Positions 3,146 through 12,367 of a stretch of DNA of 32,000 bases are shown here, in pieces; the first letter of the stretch is position 1, and every line of letters starts with the position of its first letter. Position numbers and translations under genes: made by a program. The notes under the pieces are model-generated. The model ran no database searches and was not told the origin of the DNA. It worked only from the letters and a program-made list of their open reading frames with translations. Source of the stretch: Tissierellales bacterium (GTDB lineage Bacteria; Bacillota; Clostridia; Tissierellales; Proteiniboraceae); contig JBBAFY010000006.1 in the NCBI GenBank assembly GCA_041655135.1, positions 12,242 to 44,241 on the forward strand, read 5' to 3'.

Positions 3146-6100
3146 TTAAAAAGTTAGGTTTTCGGCACCATGCTTCAGTTCCATTTCATAGATATTGCCA
3201 TCGCTCATTATGAGCAGGTTTCCATTGTCTAATACATTATGAAAACTTACTGGAATAGAAAGTATAAGGTTTTCTAGTGTCTTTATATCAATATATATAA
3301 TCCCATCCTGAGTGATTTCAGATATTTTATCGGCTGTAAACTTTTCTTTTAATTCTACTTTCATTTGAGTAATAGTCTGGTGTCCAAGCCTTTGTTCTAG
3401 AACTTCCTTTAGATACTTTGGTTTTATATAGGAAATAGATTTTCTAATGGAACTAGACACTCTGTTATATACGATGATTCCTCCATAGGTTAATATCCAA
3501 ATCTCATTTAAAAGCGCTAGAATTTCCATATCTTCTGCTACTAATTCATCAAGATTTAACCCATGCTCTCCTTCAAACAAACACTCTTTGCTCATCTCAT
3601 CTCTGATATGAAGTACATCCTCAAAAACCCATATTTTAAATGAATAATTAGTATCAAATATTTTAACAGGAGTCCTAGTTTTCAATAGATGTTCAGGATA
3701 ATATTTCTTCACAGTTATAGATTTTGTCAGAATATCTAACGTAAATTCTGACTCTGAAAACTTGTAGGTAATAAACTCCTGATTTTCTTCGATGGCTCTA
3801 CATTCATCTCTTAAAATACCTTCAATATTTACTTCATCAAAAATAGGACAATTCTGCTGGAAGTCCCAGGCATATAAATCGTCTTCTAATAGCCAGATAT
3901 ACACATATTTATAGCATCTTAGATAAGTTATGCGTTCCTTTTTCCTCTCTATGTGTTCGGGCATTTCAATTTTCATACAGTTTAACTTGCCATCAGATAA
4001 ATCCAGAACACAAATGCTCTTAGTGTTCATAAACCATATCTTTCCATCTCCATAACCTCTAATTGCTATGCCTTTGCTTCCATTATCCAACATGTTGTGA
4101 TTAGTCTCATAAATACATCTGTTTTTTTCATAATCCCACACGTGTATCTTATCCCTTAACACCCATATCTTATAATTTTTATATGTATACTCACCTATGA
4201 TGCCATTCTTACCTGCAGGTATAAAATCAGGATGTTCTTTGAACTCAATTTTAAAATTATCAATATGTAGCCTAATATCTCCCTCTGGTGTAAAAATACA
4301 AACTTCATTATCTAATATTTGATATATACGATTATGTCTGCTATGAAATCTTGTTAATCTAAAAGCCTGACCATTTGGTGGCAGAGTAATTTCCCTGCCT
4401 AAGTCTTCTTCAAACAAAGCTGTGGGGTTAAGAGTCATAGGTTGCTGCAATACCTTTATCCTGTTCTTATATACCTCGACAATTATATTATCTAAATATA
4501 TCGAAAATCTTTCCTCAAACTCGAATGTACTGCCTTTAGACGTATTTCTCAATGGCCATCCGAAAAAACCAACATTTTCTTCAGCACTATAAGGTTGAAA
4601 AATATCATTTTCTATGCATTCATGTTTTTGATAATTTTCATTTTTTGTGCGTATACCTTCCTCCCAGCTTCTCATTCCATATTTATCATATGATTCTGTT
4701 AAGCAAATAAATTTATTTCGGTCTTTCTCAAGGTTAGCTATTATCAATAAGTCATCATCAACTTTAAAATAATCTGAAGAATCTCTGCCACCAGTAGTAT
4801 AGCTACATGGAATAGGAAAGCTACATGAAAACTCTTCTCCCTTAAGATACTTTCCCCAAACTCTCATATTATGAAGATCATCATCTATATATATGATATT
4901 TTCATCAACTTCTACTCTTGACACTGCATAAAATCCCTTGGCCTGTGTATGAGAAAGAAGGGAAATCTCCAGTTTACTGCTTTCATTTTCCGTAATAACA
5001 ATATCCTTTGATATAGCTATTTTAGGAATAAAGTCATTGTAATTCAGCTTCCTATATATTTTCTCTTTTATGATTCCTTCTTCTTTGTCAATAATACTCC
5101 AGGAATTTTCAAATTCAAAAACCTGAACCATACCCATATCCTTGCAAGTGCTGTAATAAATCTCACAATCTAGACCATCAAACTCTATAGAGTTGACACA
5201 TTCCTCTGTAAGCATATTCCACATGTCAACACGAGGATACTTACTAGCCCCATCCCTATCCTCTAATTCAACATAAAGATAATTTCCACATATTTTTCTA
5301 CTGTTAAAGGATTCTTCTCTTCCTTTGTAATACTCTTTTATTATTCTGTAAGGCTTTGTCATTTTATGTGTAAGCTTATTATATACTAACAATAATCCTG
5401 CTCTATCACTGATGACCAGAAGCTCTTTAGTGCCTTCCATATGTAATCTTTTTAAGCCATGGGTGTTTTTAATAGTGCAGCCAGACTCATGGATAAGCTC
5501 CATAGTGTTTAAATCCCAAATTTTTAAAGCAGATGGAGCCATTGTAAGTAAATAGCCATCCTTATATGAGTAATAGTTAACACCATTCAACTCTTCTAGC
5601 TTTTTCCCAGACTTCTTATCCCAAAAAATTAGCTGTATATCAACATGCACTTCTTTCTTGGTTTTACCAATAAAGCTCCATTGGTCTTGTCTTTCTTCTT
5701 CACTAATATCCACCTCTTGGCTTAGTGCACTAACTGAAATAATGACATCCTTGTAGCATTCCATATAGAGAATATGATTCCTATGTCCTTTCAATATACA
5801 AAGAAGCTCACCATTGGTCATGTCGTATACTGTAATGTCGTTTTTATCATCTTTTTCTAAATAATAATCCCATCCTAGTGCAATTTTTTTATCTTCTTTT
5901 ACAGTAGTAAACTCCATTCCCCATTTTAGATCTTTTGCTTGCTTATTGACAGATTTGTTTTTCCTATGCATAATTTTATGGGATTCTATTTCTCCGAGTT
6001 CCATATCTATACGATACTTAATAAAGTCGTAATGGCTACCCACACTATAATTTAAGTAATTCCCTTCAAGTGAAAATCGCCCATCATAGTCATGATAATT

Positions 6101-8722
6101 ATTTTTAAACAATATTCTCTCTGACAGCCAAATCCTTTCCTTTAGGTGTATAGAAGGTTTCAAATCCCATATTTCTAAAATTGATACTTCTTCAGATCTG
6201 TTGATAAGTATATATAAGCTATCTTCTATTACCTGCCAATCATGGCAGATATCATATTCCATATATTCATCCTCAGGCTCATCAATAAGGATATTGCTAA
6301 CCTTATTTATATTTTCAGGTTTATGACAATACTCAGATAAAGGCTTTAGCCAAGGAAAGTTCGTTTGTCCCTCTAGGTCCTTTAACAAAGAACTGATTTG
6401 CTGGTTAGTAATCTTTCCTAGCCATAGATATAAAAAGGTGGGTAGCTCCAATACAGATATATCAATGGCATGCTTAGATCTTTCCAATGCATTCTGAAGT
6501 TGAACAATGGCTTCATTCTGCTCACTTATATAATTAAAATCCAGTAGTAGCTCATCAATTCCACAGATTCTAATTTTGTTATATAAAAAACTGTAATTTA
6601 AAAGAATCCTCTCTATTTCGTCGTCTTGACCACTTGCATGAAGATGATAAGTCAGCTCCCTATAGGCAGCTACAGTTTCGGCATTTATCCTATCCTCTTC
6701 ATTGAATTTTAGCTTGTTCCTGTATACCTTTGCTAGACAACTATGGAACTCTTTTTTCTGAGATTGGTATCTTTCCTGTGTTGCCAGCTTAAAACTTTCA
6801 TAAAAATAACTCAATTTCTTGCCATGGTATACAAGATAATCCCTCATCTGTCTGATATATTCGTACATCTTCTCTTTAATTGCTTCATTTTCTGGATCTA
6901 GACCTTTACTAAATCCAATCCCTGCTATGAGCTCCTTAGACTCTAATCCGTTCCTAGAATAAGCCATTAGTCCAAATAGACCCTTAACTATATCTGCATT
7001 ATAAACACCCTTCTCAATATAGTCTGCATCTTCCTCCATCCGTCTAAGTACTTTATTAAATGCACTCTTGCTTGTATCCCCAAAATCATATATCTCCTGT
7101 CTCAAATTATCAAATGATCCATAAATCCTAAGCTCAGATAATAAAATTTTAAGATATAAGGGGTTCTCTGTTGCATCAATTTTCAACAATTCATTTTTAT
7201 CCGTATCACTAAGCTTTTTCAAATAAGTAGCTAAGAACTCGTCAATCAATTGCTCTCTTATATCCAATGAAGAAAAACTATTGAGTTCCATTAGATTGTT
7301 GAATCTGTTTTGAAAACGTAGGAATCCTTTTTCATTATCTAGGGCTTTGCAGCTTATGACCATTTTACTGTCTGCACTAAGTTCATTAGGAATCCAAGCC
7401 ATACTGTCTAGGGTTTCCTCTAGCTCATTTACAGAATCAATCACAATAGTAATCTTGCTTTTTAGACACTTCATTATCTTTTTCCAGAATCTAATTAATT
7501 GCTTTGGCTGATTAATGAGACCAGTTATTGACATATCCATTTCATTTTCTATTTTGTCAGTATCAAAGCAATTACCAGCATGTAATTCTTCTGCAATACT
7601 TGATAACAAATCCTGAGTGCGAATGCTTTTATCCCCAACTCCACAAAAACGGTAGCAGATTCTTTCTCCACGCTCACTCAACAATTTTATAATATTAGCC
7701 ATTAGGACTGTCTTTCCAACACCTGCATTAGCATATACTAAAAGTGGTTGTTTAGATTCCCCACCCACATATTCTAATAACTGTCCTACCTCTTCATTAC
7801 GCCCAACAAACTGATGGAGATTTCTGTGAAGGAATTCTTCCTGCTGGACTAATTCATCATCTCCGCTCATATCCATTTTTTCGCTACAATTCTCAGGAAA
7901 CTCCTTTTCAATTGCCTTAGTCAAACCTTCAAATATATAATCCTTAAGGTCTGTGAAGGCATCATCTTTAATTCTGAAATTAGTTAGCCTTCCCTGACAC
8001 AGGGAGTCTCCAAGCTTGTCCGATTTTAGTTCTGGAGTCCTCTGATTCTTATCAAAATCACAGCAATACTCATTCCATTCATACATTGATTTATGAACTT
8101 GCTCCATTGTACCTAGCTTTAATTGGTTCTTAAATGACTCCAATATCTGATCTTCTTTTTCTGGAGACTGAGCTAAAGCATTAGTATAAATATTTAATAA
8201 TGGACCATAGGAATTAGTCATATCATCCAAATAACTAGAGTTTCTAAATAGAAAAAGAGCATTTCTCACTCTTTTGTGTTTTGTTACTTTACCTGTTTTG
8301 CTATCTTTTATTTCAAATGGGTTTATCAGTGCATGCATTATTTCAAGCTCTGTTACAGAACTTTTTCCTATGGATCCGTCTATATCTACAATCTTCTCAT
8401 AGGTAGAAAGAGCAACGTCCTCCTTTTCTGGCACCCAACCCCTTCTCTGGCCTAGGAAGCAAAGAAAGAAAGGTCTACATTTATCAATATTATCTAGACA
8501 TATTTCAACTACCTTATTGTTTAAGCTGTCCGATTCTTCACTTGTGATTCCCCATCTTAAATCAATATCAACGAGCCGTAGCTTTCTTTCCATGCACCAT
8601 TCTGAAAGTTTAGGAAAAACGCTTTTTATCAAATAATCACGTTCTGCATGCATATCATTAAATGTACTGCTTATAAAAACATAAACATTTTGCCATTTAA
8701 GTGTATTTTTGTGCTCTGCCAT
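3146..8722 (-). CDS. Giant STAND NTPase with DUF4062-like N-terminal domain, NACHT-type P-loop NTPase, helical region and a long degenerate WD40/beta-propeller region
   Basis: GGAGG RBS at 8732-8736, 9 nt before ATG 8722. DUF4062-type N-terminus at aa 13-95: VYVFISSTFNDMHAERDYL...VDIDLRWGI...CRPFFLCFLGQRRGW. Walker A is LLVYANAGVGKTVL (aa 327-340, nt about 7703-7744). The NACHT-like Walker B is ITIVIDSVNELEE (aa 423-435). The helical part contains NPLYLKILLSELRIYGS. From about aa 800 to 1858 there are repeated blade-like units, for example ITVYDMTNGELLCILKGHRNHILYMECYKDVIISVS, KIWDLN, IHVWDYE and LYAWDF. Confidence 0.85.
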   Translation of the reverse strand: MAEHKNTLKWQNVYVFISSTFNDMHAERDYLIKSVFPKLSEWCMERKLRLVDIDLRWGITSEESDSLNNKVVEICLDNIDKCRPFFLCFLGQRRGWVPEKEDVALSTYEKIVDIDGSIGKSSVTELEIMHALINPFEIKDSKTGKVTKHKRVRNALFLFRNSSYLDDMTNSYGPLLNIYTNALAQSPEKEDQILESFKNQLKLGTMEQVHKSMYEWNEYCCDFDKNQRTPELKSDKLGDSLCQGRLTNFRIKDDAFTDLKDYIFEGLTKAIEKEFPENCSEKMDMSGDDELVQQEEFLHRNLHQFVGRNEEVGQLLEYVGGESKQPLLVYANAGVGKTVLMANIIKLLSERGERICYRFCGVGDKSIRTQDLLSSIAEELHAGNCFDTDKIENEMDMSITGLINQPKQLIRFWKKIMKCLKSKITIVIDSVNELEETLDSMAWIPNELSADSKMVISCKALDNEKGFLRFQNRFNNLMELNSFSSLDIREQLIDEFLATYLKKLSDTDKNELLKIDATENPLYLKILLSELRIYGSFDNLRQEIYDFGDTSKSAFNKVLRRMEEDADYIEKGVYNADIVKGLFGLMAYSRNGLESKELIAGIGFSKGLDPENEAIKEKMYEYIRQMRDYLVYHGKKLSYFYESFKLATQERYQSQKKEFHSCLAKVYRNKLKFNEEDRINAETVAAYRELTYHLHASGQDDEIERILLNYSFLYNKIRICGIDELLLDFNYISEQNEAIVQLQNALERSKHAIDISVLELPTFLYLWLGKITNQQISSLLKDLEGQTNFPWLKPLSEYCHKPENINKVSNILIDEPEDEYMEYDICHDWQVIEDSLYILINRSEEVSILEIWDLKPSIHLKERIWLSERILFKNNYHDYDGRFSLEGNYLNYSVGSHYDFIKYRIDMELGEIESHKIMHRKNKSVNKQAKDLKWGMEFTTVKEDKKIALGWDYYLEKDDKNDITVYDMTNGELLCILKGHRNHILYMECYKDVIISVSALSQEVDISEEERQDQWSFIGKTKKEVHVDIQLIFWDKKSGKKLEELNGVNYYSYKDGYLLTMAPSALKIWDLNTMELIHESGCTIKNTHGLKRLHMEGTKELLVISDRAGLLLVYNKLTHKMTKPYRIIKEYYKGREESFNSRKICGNYLYVELEDRDGASKYPRVDMWNMLTEECVNSIEFDGLDCEIYYSTCKDMGMVQVFEFENSWSIIDKEEGIIKEKIYRKLNYNDFIPKIAISKDIVITENESSKLEISLLSHTQAKGFYAVSRVEVDENIIYIDDDLHNMRVWGKYLKGEEFSCSFPIPCSYTTGGRDSSDYFKVDDDLLIIANLEKDRNKFICLTESYDKYGMRSWEEGIRTKNENYQKHECIENDIFQPYSAEENVGFFGWPLRNTSKGSTFEFEERFSIYLDNIIVEVYKNRIKVLQQPMTLNPTALFEEDLGREITLPPNGQAFRLTRFHSRHNRIYQILDNEVCIFTPEGDIRLHIDNFKIEFKEHPDFIPAGKNGIIGEYTYKNYKIWVLRDKIHVWDYEKNRCIYETNHNMLDNGSKGIAIRGYGDGKIWFMNTKSICVLDLSDGKLNCMKIEMPEHIERKKERITYLRCYKYVYIWLLEDDLYAWDFQQNCPIFDEVNIEGILRDECRAIEENQEFITYKFSESEFTLDILTKSITVKKYYPEHLLKTRTPVKIFDTNYSFKIWVFEDVLHIRDEMSKECLFEGEHGLNLDELVAEDMEILALLNEIWILTYGGIIVYNRVSSSIRKSISYIKPKYLKEVLEQRLGHQTITQMKVELKEKFTADKISEITQDGIIYIDIKTLENLILSIPVSFHNVLDNGNLLIMSDGNIYEMELKHGAENLTF
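3151..3175. repeat. Degenerate copy of dyad repeat family A overlapping the 3' end of the STAND gene
   Basis: aagttaggttttcggcaccatgctt compares with aagattggtgcctggcaccatgctt at 1901-1925. It encodes the last residues (HGAENLTF) of the 1858-aa ORF. Confidence 0.6.
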
Positions 8723-8742: not shown

Positions 8743-10449
8743 CTATTTGTACACCTTTAATCCAATGGTATTTAATAATGAAATAATGTTCCTCACTGTA
8801 TCCCTATCAAGTTCCTTAACATCCTCTGTAAGCTCCTCATATGGTATAAGGTGCGGACTAATCTTATTATCTATATCCTTTGCCTCACCATAGGTCCATC
8901 CATTTTTGCTCCTTTCATCTACCCATGAATCATGCTCAATCTTGGATAAATACTCTATCTGAGAAGGTTCCAATTCCTTAATCTCAGTTCCTCCCTCATT
9001 CTCCTCAGATGCACTATATCCTAGATACCTCAGTTTATCAGTTATAGTTCTTGCCTGACGTATATTAGAATACTTCAAGTCTTCAGGTAGGCTTTCCCAA
9101 GTAGGGTGCTTTAGTTCAATATCTGGATTTCTTTCAATTTGGTTTTTGTTATAATCAGCATGAATTGACTTAGCAATTTTTTCAATATTTATAAGTAATG
9201 GTCTTGGAGCTATCTTGACATCTTGTTCTTGGATTGTTTCTATATATAAATCAGAACCTGCCAAGCATTCCACCTTAATACCATCTTTAAATAGAGCCTT
9301 AATATCGATAACACTGTTAAATAGAGCTTCCTTCTTTTCAGCAAAACCTCTTTCCATGGCTCCCTTTGGTGCTAAATATGTAATTGCCATCTGAGTCTCT
9401 GTCATATTAAGTCTAGACCCATCAGCAAGAACCCTCTTTTTGTCTTCAATTCCATAGGCTTCACGATTCCATTCCTGTAATTCATCACATAATATCAATA
9501 GATAAGCATAGGGGTGCTTCTCTGGAGTTAAGGCTCCTAGTGAAAATGGCTCCTTCATCAATACATTTTTATAATAATTATGCAGCAAAATCGCTCCTGC
9601 AGCATCTACTATCTCGTTATATAAAACATCGGAACTAATCCCACTCATTTGAAGCATATGACCATACCATTTCAATAATATAATTGAACTATAGAATCCA
9701 TGGTCTACAAAACCAAACTTTTGCATATTGCTTAAGAAGTCACTTAAGTACTTCTTAGTAGTCTCTAAATCTGTCCCAAGCCTGCTTTGTATATTATAGC
9801 TCAATAAGTCTAATGCTTTATTAGGGTCAATATGATTTAAATCTGCTATTGAATTATCATCTATAGAAATAGTAGGCACCCTATTTAACACCTCAAAGTC
9901 TTTAAATGCTAAATAAGGATCTGCACTCTTATTTTCACCATCAACATCACTTACTAACTTGATAAATTTTTTGATTTGATTGTTGGTAATTTCCACAGGA
10001 TATCCTACATCATGACAAAGAGAGGCAATTCCCCATTTAAATAGAAACTCCTTCCTAGATGATTCATATTTTTCTCTACTTTTACTATTCTTCTCATGAT
10101 CCTCTTCTATAATAGTCCTAAGGTTTTTATTTTGGGCATAGATAGCTAAACCTAAAACAAATACATTAACTGAGTGGACATAATGATCTCTCTGCTTGTC
10201 AATTAGAGTAGCAGCGTTTTCTTCATAGCTTTTCAAGACATCTAATAGGTCAATAAAGTTCTTTTTCCCCTGCAACAAAATTTTATAACTATCAAAAAAA
10301 GTTACATACACATCAAATGCAGTCTCTTTATTCTCATCCTTAAGAAAATTAGCTATTGCCTCTTTCAAATAAATCTCATAATCATTGGCTTTTCTTGTTT
10401 CCTTCCTTAACTTAAAGAAATCAATTACATATTCTTTTTTTAAACCCAT
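8743..10449 (-). CDS. HD-domain phosphohydrolase fused to a C-terminal RyR (ryanodine-receptor repeat, PF02026-type) module
   Basis: GGAGG RBS at 10456-10460, directly abutting the upstream stop codon. HD signature residues are RDHYVHSVNV (H89, H92), CHDVGYP (H146-D147, nt 10009-10014), DHGFYS, LLHN and LCDELQ. The C-terminus, LSKIEHDSWVDERSKNGWTYGEAKDIDNKISPHLIPYEELTEDVKELDRDTVRNI, is a strong match to my recollection of the RyR-domain consensus. Confidence 0.8.
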   Translation of the reverse strand: MGLKKEYVIDFFKLRKETRKANDYEIYLKEAIANFLKDENKETAFDVYVTFFDSYKILLQGKKNFIDLLDVLKSYEENAATLIDKQRDHYVHSVNVFVLGLAIYAQNKNLRTIIEEDHEKNSKSREKYESSRKEFLFKWGIASLCHDVGYPVEITNNQIKKFIKLVSDVDGENKSADPYLAFKDFEVLNRVPTISIDDNSIADLNHIDPNKALDLLSYNIQSRLGTDLETTKKYLSDFLSNMQKFGFVDHGFYSSIILLKWYGHMLQMSGISSDVLYNEIVDAAGAILLHNYYKNVLMKEPFSLGALTPEKHPYAYLLILCDELQEWNREAYGIEDKKRVLADGSRLNMTETQMAITYLAPKGAMERGFAEKKEALFNSVIDIKALFKDGIKVECLAGSDLYIETIQEQDVKIAPRPLLINIEKIAKSIHADYNKNQIERNPDIELKHPTWESLPEDLKYSNIRQARTITDKLRYLGYSASEENEGGTEIKELEPSQIEYLSKIEHDSWVDERSKNGWTYGEAKDIDNKISPHLIPYEELTEDVKELDRDTVRNIISLLNTIGLKVYK

Positions 10450-10460
10450 TTTTATCCTCC

Positions 10461-12305
10461 TTAATTAATGTTTTTAAGTAACTGAGCTACCACTTCATAA
10501 TCATATTCTTGAAATGCAGTCTTGCTTTTTTGACAAGGTAGTTCAGCTAATTCATCCCAGCTAACTAGACATAAATGCTTCTTTTCATTCTCTCGTTTTG
10601 CTATATTGTTGCTTTTCTCTTGGTCTGTAAGCTCCTCTGCCAATAAAGGAGTCCATCCACGTGCATAATGAAATCCACACCATCTATAGTGCTCATACAT
10701 AGCTAGTTTCCAATATATATCCTCACCAGTGTTATTATTGTTAATTAAGCCTAGTTTGTTTACAGTATCTCTAGCAGATGCACGATTAGAGTCCTTAGTA
10801 AAAACGCTTAATTCTCTCCACTGATTCACTTTTTTGTCCTTTACATTCTTCTTGTAGTTTTCATGAACTTGTTTACCTAGCTCATCAGCCTTTCTTAAAA
10901 TCAAGTTATCATATGTATATATATCCTTAAACATATTTATGGCATAGAGCATATGACTTTGTGAAGTCAGTACCTCTTGGTCATATTCTTTATCTCTAAC
11001 GAAGAATATAATTTCAGGCTTGTCCTTTTTTAATTCTCTATTCTGTATGAAACGGTCTAGCTTAAGTGCAGTTTTGACATTTTGATTGCTATCACCTGTT
11101 ACTATGAAAAATTGATGAATCTGAGCTAGCTTGTCTCCAATTACTTGGTAAAACTCCTCGGTTCCAATAGCAGTATCACAAAACTCTATGGAGTTTTTAT
11201 GGGCAAAATAAGGAACATCCGTTAGGAAATCCTGCTTTAGCCTTTTCATGTTTTCGTCTATAACTAATGCTCTATAAGGTGCCTCTGAAAAATCTTCCCT
11301 TAAAAATCTTGAGTTTTCATAGGTCGCTAAGAGTAGCTCTTGACCTAAGTCACCAAAGCCAATTATACAAGCTGAATATGGTTCCTTTACTAGATTAAAT
11401 GAATCCTTGTCATAGAACTCATTGTTTTTCTCTAAAACTACAAGAGGTGAGTGTTTTTCTCTTAACTTATCTACTACTAATTGTTCTTCTGATACTAAAT
11501 ATGTATCTAACTTTATATCCTTCAAGTTTTGAAAGCGAAGCTGTTCATTGTCGCAAAAAACAGTAATGTTAATATTGCTAAATTCCGTGCCATGTGAATT
11601 GTCTTCAATATTTTTTGCAATACTATTCAGTTTTCCTAAATATTCAATATTCTCGTTTTTGTCCTCTAGTAATAAAACAATATGGTATTGGTGAGATGGT
11701 TTCCCATTGTTAATGGGATTATCAGCTAGAAAATCATCCAATTTTTTTACTCTTACATTCCCAAAATTCTTAGCTTTATGGTCCACTTCTTCCCTTGTAT
11801 AATATGTTATTACTTTATCCTTAAAATCAGCCTTACTGGATATATCGTCAATCAATGCATGGGCACTGACAATGTCCCCAACAATCAATATCTTGTTAGG
11901 CTGTTTATTATATATGTACCAAAGCTTAAATTTGTGTATCTTGTCAGAAAGAAGAAAAACACTAAGAGTACCAGCGGTATTTAATGATGAAATAAGCAGG
12001 ATTGTCCATATTTGTATTTCAATCAGTTGCTCATCGCCAAGAATATGATATACTTCTCTAAACCTTTGAAAGCTTAAATCAAAAGCAACTCCCTTAAGTG
12101 CTAAATATAGAGCATTAAATATGATCAAAACCATTGCTTTTAAGTCCATATTTGTCTGCATTAGATACCCTAGCACTAAAAAAATACCAAAAACAAATAT
12201 GTAATTGTAGGACCAAAGAACAAGCCTTTCAATATTTTTATCCCTTGCTTTTCTAGAGGACCATATAACAATACACAAGATAGAAAAATAAATAGCTAAT
12301 ATCAT
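10461..12305 (-). CDS. Membrane protein with 4 N-terminal TM helices, two Rossmann-like (TrkA-N-like) domains and a C-terminal RyR-type module
   Basis: Hydrophobic helices lie within aa 1-120. The Rossmann-like segments are KILIVGDIVSAHALIDD (glycine motif degenerate) and ACIIGFGDLGQELL (GxGxxG). The C-terminus has QVHENYKK...WRELSVFTKDSNRASARDTVNKLG followed by YEHYRWCGFHYARGWTP...HLCLVSWDELAE, parallel to the C-terminus of the adjacent HD protein. An AAGGTGA RBS precedes ATG 12305. Confidence 0.75.
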   Translation of the reverse strand: MILAIYFSILCIVIWSSRKARDKNIERLVLWSYNYIFVFGIFLVLGYLMQTNMDLKAMVLIIFNALYLALKGVAFDLSFQRFREVYHILGDEQLIEIQIWTILLISSLNTAGTLSVFLLSDKIHKFKLWYIYNKQPNKILIVGDIVSAHALIDDISSKADFKDKVITYYTREEVDHKAKNFGNVRVKKLDDFLADNPINNGKPSHQYHIVLLLEDKNENIEYLGKLNSIAKNIEDNSHGTEFSNINITVFCDNEQLRFQNLKDIKLDTYLVSEEQLVVDKLREKHSPLVVLEKNNEFYDKDSFNLVKEPYSACIIGFGDLGQELLLATYENSRFLREDFSEAPYRALVIDENMKRLKQDFLTDVPYFAHKNSIEFCDTAIGTEEFYQVIGDKLAQIHQFFIVTGDSNQNVKTALKLDRFIQNRELKKDKPEIIFFVRDKEYDQEVLTSQSHMLYAINMFKDIYTYDNLILRKADELGKQVHENYKKNVKDKKVNQWRELSVFTKDSNRASARDTVNKLGLINNNNTGEDIYWKLAMYEHYRWCGFHYARGWTPLLAEELTDQEKSNNIAKRENEKKHLCLVSWDELAELPCQKSKTAFQEYDYEVVAQLLKNIN

Positions 12306-12367
12306 GTAGTAATCACCTTAAGTAGTATATTCAGGTTTTAGGATACCTGTAAACCTATAATATACTA

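Follow-up and report, generated by a model that had tools for sequence, protein, structure and literature searches.

The Thoeris systems of bacterial immunity (types I-XI) place a TIR-family, NAD+-processing gene beside effectors that carry a small-molecule sensor domain, and they are among the closest described counterparts of the three-gene cassette analyzed here. The cassette occupies the minus strand of a 32,000-nucleotide (nt) stretch of a Tissierellales bacterium genome (GCA_041655135.1, contig JBBAFY010000006.1, positions 12,242 to 44,241), hereafter the window; it encodes a membrane protein, an HD-like protein, and a STAND protein with a DUF4062 domain at its N-terminus. Effector classes known from Thoeris include a hydrolase and a membrane protein, and these resemble the two candidate effectors of the cassette. 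A systematic TIR survey lists 29 putative Thoeris types and sets aside TIRs found in Avs (STAND) proteins; no RyR-domain effector was found in its text, nor RyR, PF02026, or TrkA in the supplement parts examined, and the sole mention of "ryanodine" there concerns animal cyclic ADP-ribose (cADPR) signaling (10.64898/2025.12.03.692087). Set against Thoeris, the cassette has as its putative sensor a tandem RyR repeat where Thoeris effectors use SLOG, Macro, or other domains, its putative generator is a DUF4062 domain fused to a NACHT STAND protein, the class that the survey put aside, and two candidate effectors carry the same sensor.

An earlier, model-made interpretation of the window (the sequence-only reading) took bacterial RyR domains to have essentially no known function, a statement that is now out of date. 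According to two preprints of 2026, phage RyR-domain proteins bind the TIR-made cADPR isomers 2'cADPR and 3'cADPR, as well as cADPR, at nanomolar affinity, or cleave them, and so block Thoeris (PMC13232231; 10.64898/2026.06.04.730250). Helix 1 supplies a His and a Trp to the ligand contacts, which a further His and an Asp complete, in a fold and pocket that match RyR Repeat12; the residues are H75/W78/H100/D117 in RyDEP and H129/W132/H154/D171 in RyR Tad, both spaced +3, +22, +17 (PMC13232231; 10.64898/2026.06.04.730250). Host-encoded RyR effectors are not discussed in the RyDEP preprint (PMC13232231).

DUF4062, for its part, has been shown by experiment to be a TIR-like NADase; it produces ADP-ribose and acts in phage defense (10.64898/2026.05.01.722283; 10.64898/2026.06.25.731849), and the DUF4062-NACHT-WD40 layout is also present in human TEP1 and NWD1 (10.64898/2026.05.01.722283). 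When compared with the DUF4062 NADases (Swarozyc, Evangelion, and TEP1/NWD1-like proteins), the STAND protein of the window has the DUF4062-NACHT-helical-repeat layout of the TEP1/NWD type. The published bacterial DUF4062 systems are single-gene, NAD+-depleting effectors, whereas the DUF4062 proteins that we describe are repeatedly linked to RyR-module effectors (10 loci), and this recurrent linkage suggests a signaling rather than a purely depleting role. Cyclic-oligonucleotide-based antiphage signaling systems (CBASS) and type III CRISPR with SAVED or CARF effectors are like the cassette in reusing one sensor domain, sometimes with several effectors per signal; they differ from it in signal chemistry and sensor folds. 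A full-text search of incomplete coverage found no literature linking host RyR-domain proteins to TIR systems, and within the literature searched the cassette is an undescribed variant of TIR-based signaling. We judge it reasonably probable that its three genes form an operon-like unit acting as a TIR-type, Thoeris-like signaling defense system.

The shared C-terminal module and its putative ligand pocket

The sequence-only reading proposed that the HD-like and membrane proteins, otherwise unrelated, end in the same bipartite RyR-type module, and it named in advance a profile alignment of the two C-termini as the test. By BLASTP the two window C-termini are only suggestively alike (E 0.065; 26% identity over 97 amino acids [aa]). 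At the level of families, HHalign comparison of C-terminal profiles (10 sequences for the membrane-protein family; the best 120 of more than 1124 relatives for the HD-like family) returned a probability of 97.4 and E 1.5e-11 over 119 columns that cross both sub-motifs, the first of which alone gave E 2e-9 and the second E 2.4e-5. We regard this homology as significant because the family profiles reach E 1.5e-11 while the controls, one reversed and five column-shuffled profiles, gave E 0.27-0.6. The N-terminal 420-470 residues of the two families show no similarity by the same method (E 0.17). The proposal of one terminal module on two otherwise unlike neighbors is thus borne out, for both sub-motifs and at the positions first suggested.

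Membership of the module in the RyR family (Pfam PF02026), a further element of that proposal, is direct for the HD-like protein, whose residues 498-566 score 58.2 bits against a gathering cut-off of 27.4. The membrane protein falls below that threshold (10.6 bits as a whole protein; 18.2 bits, E 0.003, for its C-terminus alone), and we call it an RyR-module protein because of three indirect lines of evidence. All nine matches of its family profile to PDB sequences are RyR repeats (best E 0.0012); it is homologous to proteins, encoded beside HD-like genes, that are Pfam-positive for both TrkA_N and RyR (E 1e-16 over 453 columns); and the modules align with one another, at E 6.4e-13 between its own family and the TrkA_N-RyR proteins and at E 2.4e-29 between the latter and the HD-like family. 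Among 79 module-bearing relatives of the membrane protein that were scanned (alignment A6), 25 match TrkA_N and 12 pass Pfam RyR at E < 1e-3. Since only 12 of the 79 pass, the PF02026 model misses most of this clade, as well as all first repeats. We refer below to the two families as HD-RyR and TM-RCK-RyR.

The AlphaFold2 (AF2) model of the HD-like protein, built from a 117-sequence alignment (mean predicted local distance difference test [pLDDT] 86; predicted template modeling score [pTM] 0.83), contains a helix-helix-strand pattern twice, at residues 422-481 and 495-567. Foldseek against the PDB gave 21 matches at E <= 0.001, all of them Repeat12-type tandem RyR domains: two are Bacteroides/human chimeras, and the others are crystal structures of human RyR3 Repeat12. 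The best match, to human RyR3 Repeat12, has E 1.6e-5; the alignments span 172-199 of ~205 columns, and target-normalized TM-scores against Repeat12 domains are 0.46-0.67; a single-repeat Bacteroides RyR protein aligns over 77 columns only. By this comparison two RyR repeats form one domain in the HD-like protein. A phmmer search links the same protein to the Bt/human RyR chimera 6uhi at E 1.4e-27, and the only confident viral structural matches to the model are phage RyR proteins.

The first sub-motif, which had been described as distinct from the RyR core, is instead a degenerate first RyR repeat. It equates to the helix-1 motif (LA..H..Y/W) and the "P(Y/W)..L....K.SNR" part of the RyR repeat, with the GW.YG central loop deleted; its "W.eL..f.KdSNRa" aligns to "LVPYALLDERTKKSNRD" in RyR3 repeat 2 when the membrane-family profile is compared with the PDB, and a protein at locus L019 has a less degenerate first repeat that shows the same correspondence. 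Half-versus-half HHalign self-similarity of the module is weak (E 0.021-0.18) and insufficient alone, so our call of a tandem repeat follows from the structure match and the motif correspondence and not from sequence self-similarity. As modeled, the "bipartite" module consists of two RyR repeats fused together, a bacterial counterpart of Repeat12, in which repeat 1 is degenerate and repeat 2 canonical. That both neighboring proteins end in this same tandem module we take to be nearly certain. The animal Repeat12, its best structural match, is likewise a tandem RyR pair; its two repeats build a single pseudo-symmetric domain that binds nucleotides and drugs and is joined to an ion channel. The bacterial module differs in having a short linker between its repeats and no GW..G loop in repeat 1, and the predicted channel part of the bacterial protein is a small RCK-type one, unrelated to the RyR pore.

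We mapped pocket residues by ungapped alignment to the Bt/human RyR chimera together with the residue numbers given in both preprints on the phage proteins. Three of the four residues are kept in the HD-like family, where H506, W509, and D548 do not vary in any of 117 sequences and the spacing, counting position 531, is exactly +3, +22, +17. All four are kept in the membrane family (H539, H577, and D602 in 10 of 10 sequences, W542 in 9 of 10), with insertions between them. Over the module as a whole, the invariant positions of the HD-like family in those 117 sequences are H430, S461, Q465, H506, W509, D548, and R549; in the membrane family H481, Y484, W496, N507, R508, H539, H577, and D602 occur in 10 of 10 sequences and S506 and W542 in 9 of 10. 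Repeat 2 therefore appears, from these alignments, to retain the His/Trp/(His or Ser)/Asp pocket of the cADPR-binding phage proteins, and the modules of the window may bind related ligands. Phage RyDEP and RyR Tad share with the window module PF02026 membership, fold, and pocket residues; they differ in being small homodimers of a single repeat, which defeat defense by sequestering the signal or cleaving it, whereas in the cassette two fused repeats form the C-terminal end of effector-like host proteins. The phage proteins fit a picture in which phages copied a host receptor fold.

The sequence-only reading left it open whether the module docks or senses a ligand. Conservation of the pocket residues favors sensing, and docking is disfavored by the make-up of the STAND protein, which lacks the module. 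In a docking or adaptor arrangement the RyR modules would mediate protein contacts, heterodimerizing the two effectors or recruiting them to an activated STAND oligomer. Single-repeat RyR proteins are indeed obligate dimers via helices alpha1 and alpha4 (PMC13232231; 10.64898/2026.06.04.730250), but the module of the window is already a tandem pseudo-dimer, self-contained like Repeat12, and so needs no partner repeat. The module-bearing genes adjoin each other not only in the window but also in L002, L003, and eight more loci, yet either effector can be found without the other, next to TIR partners whose architectures are unrelated. No module-like segment is present in the STAND protein, even at E <= 10 with filters off, and a homotypic adaptor contact with that protein was rejected for this reason; moreover, the most conserved residues of the module line the ligand pocket and do not make up a surface patch. 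We regard docking as improbable.

The conserved pocket could also belong to an enzyme or sponge. On this reading, one of signal clearing or NAD salvage, the module would be a RyDEP-like glycosidase or sponge and the HD-like domain would process ADP-ribose, with TIR signaling damped or reset as a result. HD domains are typically phosphohydrolases, one TM-RCK-RyR gene (L111) adjoins a Macro-domain gene, and both families keep without exception the catalytic dyad of RyDEP (the His of the EH..W motif and the Asp of the DR motif). A membrane protein with an RCK ring would nevertheless be an odd chassis for a signal-degrading enzyme, and the two-gene operons that pair a TIR gene with either HD-RyR or TM-RCK-RyR hold no other candidate effector. 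Among the phage proteins, moreover, six of eight homologs assayed bound the signals and none cleaved them, cleavage being confined to the DyoEdafos RyDEP itself (PMC13232231). We consider signal clearing unlikely and prefer to read the module as a receptor.

TIR and DUF4062 genes beside RyR-module genes

We scanned HD-RyR relatives in one genome per species and called open reading frames (ORFs) naively in 83 loci, which lie mostly on contigs of metagenome-assembled genomes (MAGs), some of them truncated. The family comprises more than 1124 protein clusters, and at least 563 species genomes encode a relative; the taxa are mostly Clostridia and Anaerolineae, with some Coriobacteriia, one Bacteroidales, and one Terriglobales. 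A TIR or DUF4062 gene lies within three genes of HD-RyR, on either strand, at 57 of the 83 loci (69%), and is adjacent or fused at 46; a co-directional, closely spaced TIR/DUF4062 gene or a fused TIR is present at 48. Where at least three genes could be seen on each side, 41 of 54 loci have such a gene within three. The share of genes that are TIR or DUF4062 declines steeply with distance, from 31.6% at the adjacent gene to 11.9% at the second, 10.4% at the third, 1.9% at the fourth to sixth, and 0.4% at the seventh and beyond. A Pfam scan of 65 clustered neighbors recorded TIR_2 (34), LRR_4 (30), ThsB_TIR (19), TIR (13), DUF4062 (10), and NACHT (8).

The arrangements in which these genes occur are diverse. 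In a complete genome (L004) a TIR_2 gene lies directly upstream of HD-RyR in a two-gene arrangement, and in other proteins (P0028, P0030, P0045, L005:1059-3281, and L008) a single chain of 746 residues or so runs from the HD-like domain through the tandem RyR module to a C-terminal TIR, located at about residues 603-728 of 746; at L005 the fusion gene is followed by a TIR-LRR gene. At many HD-RyR loci the TIR genes are canonical and ThsB-like, and in some cases several stand one after another, a feature of type III Thoeris. L002 and L003 carry the same three genes as the cassette in another order, namely STAND, HD-RyR, and membrane protein. STAND homologs also adjoin HD-RyR in L022, L023, L034, L047, L048, and L049, as they do in L002 and L003. 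A second RyR-module protein adjoins HD-RyR in 11 loci, and in five of them (L015, L019, L035, L045, and L086) it matches both TrkA_N and RyR in Pfam. The sequence-only reading had staked its case on HD-RyR and membrane homologs co-localizing elsewhere, which they do in L002, L003, and eight further loci, and it had called for a survey of RyR architectures for HD and TrkA_N fusions and their neighbors; both kinds of fusion exist, with TIR/DUF4062 genes enriched beside them.

TM-RCK-RyR also stands beside TIR genes without HD-RyR. Within 23 metagenome loci, Pfam-verified TIR genes adjoin it at L092/L095, L099, L100, L101, and L107, with the architectures TIR-propeller, TIR-NB-ARC-TPR, TIR-TPR, and TIR-Sel1. 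On plasmid pNP243 of the cultured Butyrivibrio fibrisolvens D1 (L116, NZ_CP146964.1:87800-92379), a gene for a protein that RefSeq annotates as TIR (WP_167562754.1) lies directly upstream of the TM-RCK-RyR homolog WP_073389489.1. Taken over both families, the TIR partners of RyR-module proteins vary in architecture (LRR, TPR, WD40, NB-ARC, and Sel1).

A housekeeping role has to be weighed against these associations. The module would then sense ATP, ADP, or NAD+ and regulate a K+-type channel and a hydrolase, and the adjacency of the DUF4062-STAND gene would be incidental or would serve to sense NAD+ loss. Human RyR3 Repeat12 structures do hold ADP, AMP-PCP, and ATP, RCK domains bind NAD(H) or ATP (TrkA ring), the TM-RCK-RyR loci L093, L094, and L098 adjoin transporters and have no TIR gene, and the window lacks a defense-island context. 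The enrichment of TIR/DUF4062 genes, however, peaks sharply at the adjacent gene (31.6% against 0.4% in the distant background), some proteins have TIR fused to HD-RyR, the three-gene set is kept with its gene order shuffled in L002 and L003, and the distribution is patchy over several phyla, as is typical of mobile defense genes. A housekeeping role seems to us to have little probability, and we continue to favor a TIR-type signaling system.

Several further features of the surveyed loci deserve to be recorded in their own right. An AAA+ ATPase (577-580 aa, AAA + AAA_lid_6) and a protein of ~518-520 aa lie on the opposite strand beside the membrane-protein homolog in L001:10913-16318, L002:1-2948, and L003:1-2642, which are all of the contigs with close homologs of that protein; L001 also carries a DUF2201 protein and a second AAA protein, and the window has no AAA pair. 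This pair may be a separate neighboring defense system. A cluster of 13 proteins of 158-575 aa (C2) is encoded co-directionally next to HD-RyR, downstream in 12 loci and upstream in one, and its gene follows HD-RyR immediately in L010, L017, L018, L038, L057, L058, L059, L063, L074, and L084, with products of 455-575 aa. Two of its members have weak DUF4231/SLATT matches, and the RyR module is detectable in none; the cluster may represent yet another type of membrane partner, a third, with a different domain for sensing the signal.

Arrays of TIR genes are found at L057, L059, L067, L074, and L084, where a small TIR (225-404 aa), a mid-sized TIR (360-1082 aa), a large TIR (913-1261 aa), and HD-RyR follow one another, with a SLATT-like gene after HD-RyR in four of the five; at L083 three tandem TIR paralogs (466-487 aa) lie upstream of HD-RyR. 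Such systems, with several TIRs per HD-RyR, recall type III Thoeris. At L111 a TM-RCK-RyR gene without a TIR neighbor is followed directly by a gene (L111:9774-10625) for a Macro-domain protein, of an ADP-ribose-binding or -hydrolyzing fold. Another module architecture with an NAD-linked neighbor occurs on plasmid pA of Methylobacterium sp. FF17 (L115, NZ_CP107533.1:1567-4299), where a 910-aa RyR-domain protein whose C-terminus matches both sub-motifs is encoded near a 2082-aa SIR2-family protein, with a transposase between them.

The cassette, its proteins, and its surroundings

The features of the cassette are collected in Table 1. Its genes are all co-directional, the intergenic gaps are 11 and 20 nt, and no terminator-like site was found inside it. 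The promoter-like site upstream is a consensus match only, and such sites are not enriched relative to shuffles. The three proteins are 100% identical to those of the Tissierellales MAG records named in the table.

Table 1. Features of the three-gene cassette, with positions in the window
Feature	Residues	Position (nt)	Strand	Basis or record
Promoter-like site upstream of membrane-protein gene		12324..12353	(-)	TTTACA-18-TATACT, 10/12 consensus matches, 19 nt 5' of start codon
Gene, membrane + tandem RCK + tandem RyR protein	614 aa	10461..12305	(-)	ORF; MFA5523145.1, annotated "hypothetical"
N-terminal membrane region, 3-4 hydrophobic helices	1-120	11946..12305	(-)	Hydropathy windows aa 28-46, 57-75, 101-119
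Tandem Rossmann/RCK (TrkA-like gating ring) region	135-470	10896..11903	(-)	AF2 pLDDT 80-92, Foldseek
Tandem RyR module, membrane protein	472-614	10464..10892	(-)	HHalign
RyR repeat 1, membrane protein	about 474-522	10740-10886	(-)	
RyR repeat 2, membrane protein	about 530-612	10470-10718	(-)	
Gene, HD-like + tandem RyR protein	568 aa	8743..10449	(-)	ORF; MFA5523144.1, annotated "RyR domain-containing protein"
All-alpha domain with HD-like metal-binding signature	1-340	9430..10449	(-)	Invariant residues, AF2
Small alpha/beta linker subdomain	341-415	9205..9429	(-)	AF2 strands and helices; no database match
Tandem RyR module, HD-like protein	418-568	8746..9198	(-)	Pfam RyR, phmmer, Foldseek
RyR repeat 1, HD-like protein	421-481	9007-9189	(-)	
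RyR repeat 2, HD-like protein	494-568	8746-8970	(-)	Pfam RyR 58.2 bits
Gene, DUF4062-NACHT-repeat STAND protein	1858 aa	3146..8722	(-)	ORF; MFA5523143.1, annotated "DUF4062 domain-containing"
DUF4062 (TIR-like NADase) domain	9-136	8315..8698	(-)	PF13271 44.9 bits vs cut-off 24.7; S-V-T-E-x-E motif
NACHT-type P-loop NTPase	304-492	7247..7813	(-)	NPHP3_N 45.7 bits, ATPase_2 35.8 bits, above cut-offs; Walker A NAGVGKT
APAF-1-like helical domain	657-733	6524..6754	(-)	PF17908 26.4 bits vs cut-off 22.8
Long C-terminal repeat region (about 1000 residues), probably beta-propellers	~800-1858	3149..6325	(-)	Faint Pfam propeller match, E 0.0066

The STAND protein joins DUF4062, a P-loop NTPase, an APAF-1-like helical domain, and C-terminal repeats, the last with faint propeller matches that recur in its homologs in L002 and L003. 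These repeats are presumed, on weak evidence, to be the trigger sensor. The NACHT and NB-ARC Pfam models are themselves weak over the P-loop region. No canonical Pfam TIR is encoded in the window, which has the TIR-like domain DUF4062; the S-V-T-E-x-E motif of that domain, a putative counterpart of the catalytic E97 of KpSwz, is kept in 12 of 12 full-length DUF4062 domains beside HD-RyR. The sequence-only reading had placed the two RyR-module proteins in an NTP-dependent conflict system, and a third gene encoding a STAND protein with a NACHT-type P-loop accords well with that suggestion.

For the membrane protein that reading had described four transmembrane helices followed by Rossmann folds. 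We see three to four hydrophobic helices, and the Rossmann folds stand but are more exactly a tandem RCK, TrkA-like ring. By Foldseek the core matches the TrkA gating ring 4j9v (E 9.2e-10, 419 columns), as well as BK/Slo and CASTOR rings, and the GsuK channel 4gx0 is co-linear with the protein over 542 columns (E 3.2e-7). Pfam TrkA_N does not match the window protein at E <= 10, and homologs that align to it at E 1e-16 match TrkA_N at 45-73 bits. Close relatives are few, amounting to 10 clusters at 90% identity, but a search with the module profile recovers 1205 cluster representatives at E <= 1e-3, mostly 570-700 aa long and with the module at the C-terminus. The protein is thus predicted, on its modeled core, to be built like an RCK-gated channel with an RyR module at its end. 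TrkA/TrkH, GsuK, MthK, and BK/Slo likewise have membrane helices followed by two RCK/Rossmann lobes; the protein of the window differs from these channels in lacking the K+ selectivity motif, in carrying a C-terminal tandem RyR module, and in the association of its family with TIR genes.

The N-terminal domain of the HD-like protein had been called an HD hydrolase. The conserved H...HD...D residues in an all-alpha domain agree with that call, and no curated HD model or solved structure matches. The invariant residues are R87, D88, H89, H92, H146, D147, D249, H250, H290, and D322, and residues 1-330 are entirely helical in the AF2 model; the pattern H..HD..H..H..D in such a domain fits HD phosphohydrolases, so that "HD-like hydrolase" is a designation at the level of motifs. 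Pfam, NCBIfam, PADLOC, comparison of the family consensus with Pfam, and Foldseek against the PDB and BFVD gave no passing HD match for this N-terminus, the family profile matched nothing among PDB sequences at E <= 10, and the 50 PDB matches listed by Foldseek for the protein are all RyR entries. PF01966 touches 3 of 39 family members at E >= 0.014, and its best score, 16.1 bits against a cut-off of 22, is in a homolog over the HD dipeptide region.

Two assignments to described Thoeris types were considered and rejected. Type X pairs a TIR with a membrane effector annotated as an ion channel (ThsK), as the cassette may do. In Bacillus cereus, however, a TIR 89% identical to the published one adjoins a multi-transmembrane protein of 223-246 aa that has no RyR or RCK match; its gene is the only co-directional one next to the TIR gene, and on that adjacency the protein is presumed to be ThsK. 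When plasmids were searched with the TIR domain published for type X, only type II (Macro) neighbors were returned. Nor is the HD-like protein the "hydrolase" of type XI, which belongs to the HIT hydrolases.

Just downstream of the cassette, two ORFs (window:2041-2946, 301 aa, and window:1547-1858, 103 aa) have no Pfam match and no counterpart in L002 or L003. Farther off, window:25985-28015 and window:28132-29844 are adjacent paralogous genes for secreted-type 5'-nucleotidase/metallophosphatases with C-terminal LysM domains.

A proposed signaling route and what it would mean

SLOG, Macro, SAVED, and CARF domains act in other signaling systems as shared, swappable sensors on different effector chassis, and by analogy we read one sensor on two chassis as a putative signal receptor. 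We propose that a phage-derived trigger would be bound by the C-terminal repeats of the STAND protein, and that the resulting NTP-dependent oligomerization would switch on its N-terminal DUF4062 NAD+ glycohydrolase. An NAD-derived product, either linear ADP-ribose or an ADP-ribose isomer or adduct, would then diffuse to the two effectors, where the C-terminal tandem RyR repeat common to both, whose homology and fold are described above, would bind it. Binding would activate the HD-like, metal-dependent hydrolase on the one hand and the RCK-type membrane channel on the other, the latter depolarizing or permeabilizing the membrane, and the infected cell would stop growing or die.

A number of observations weigh against this account. 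About one-quarter of the HD-RyR loci with full flanks (13 of 54) have no TIR-type gene nearby, nor do many TM-RCK-RyR loci, and the TIR/DUF4062 calls come from a local iterated hidden Markov model, seeded with Pfam-verified examples, applied to naive ORFs, the cross-check with Pfam being confined to the aggregate and to five single proteins. The DUF4062 enzymes described so far yield linear ADP-ribose and protect by depleting NAD+ unaided, so that the STAND protein may need no effector. Where the phage proteins carry a phosphate-contacting His, position 531 of the HD-like family is Ser or Thr, and the nucleotides in the human RyR3 Repeat12 entries (ADP, AMP-PCP, and ATP) indicate that an ordinary adenine nucleotide could be what the module binds. 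The HD assignment is one at the level of motifs. In the membrane protein, AF2 modeling from 10 sequences leaves the RyR module poorly defined (pLDDT 30-50), and its membrane region, although helical, has a pLDDT of ~45 (30-50 when the module is included); the K+ filter T[VI]G[YF]G is absent from aa 1-125 of this protein and from the N-termini of the TrkA_N-RyR homologs. The cassette is flanked by cell-surface polysaccharide genes (Polysacc_synt_2, Wzy_C, Wzz, and a deacetylase) and by no recognizable defense island, and PADLOC has no model for either the HD-like or the membrane protein.

A broader reading of these data is possible, although we would give it somewhat less than an even chance. 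The original job of the RyR repeat would have been that of a receptor for TIR-made ADP-ribose signals in bacterial immune effectors, including an RCK-type channel gated via a Repeat12-like module, and the animal RyR would have inherited a cADPR/ADP-ribose sensor already coupled to ion flux. The phage sponges would then be captured host copies, and the DUF4062-STAND proteins generators of signal and not only depleters of NAD+.

If the signaling account is true, the tandem RyR repeat would be a widespread new sensor domain in bacterial TIR immunity, accompanied by two new effector classes, and the phage RyR anti-Thoeris proteins would have an origin on the host side. DUF4062 NADases would be able to act upstream of effectors, which bears on what their human relatives TEP1, NWD1, and NPHP3 do. 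Whether cADPR acts directly on RyR Repeat12 is a long-running question in animal physiology, and a small, soluble, bacterial Repeat12-like module, together with a small channel that carries it, would provide a tractable system in which to address it.

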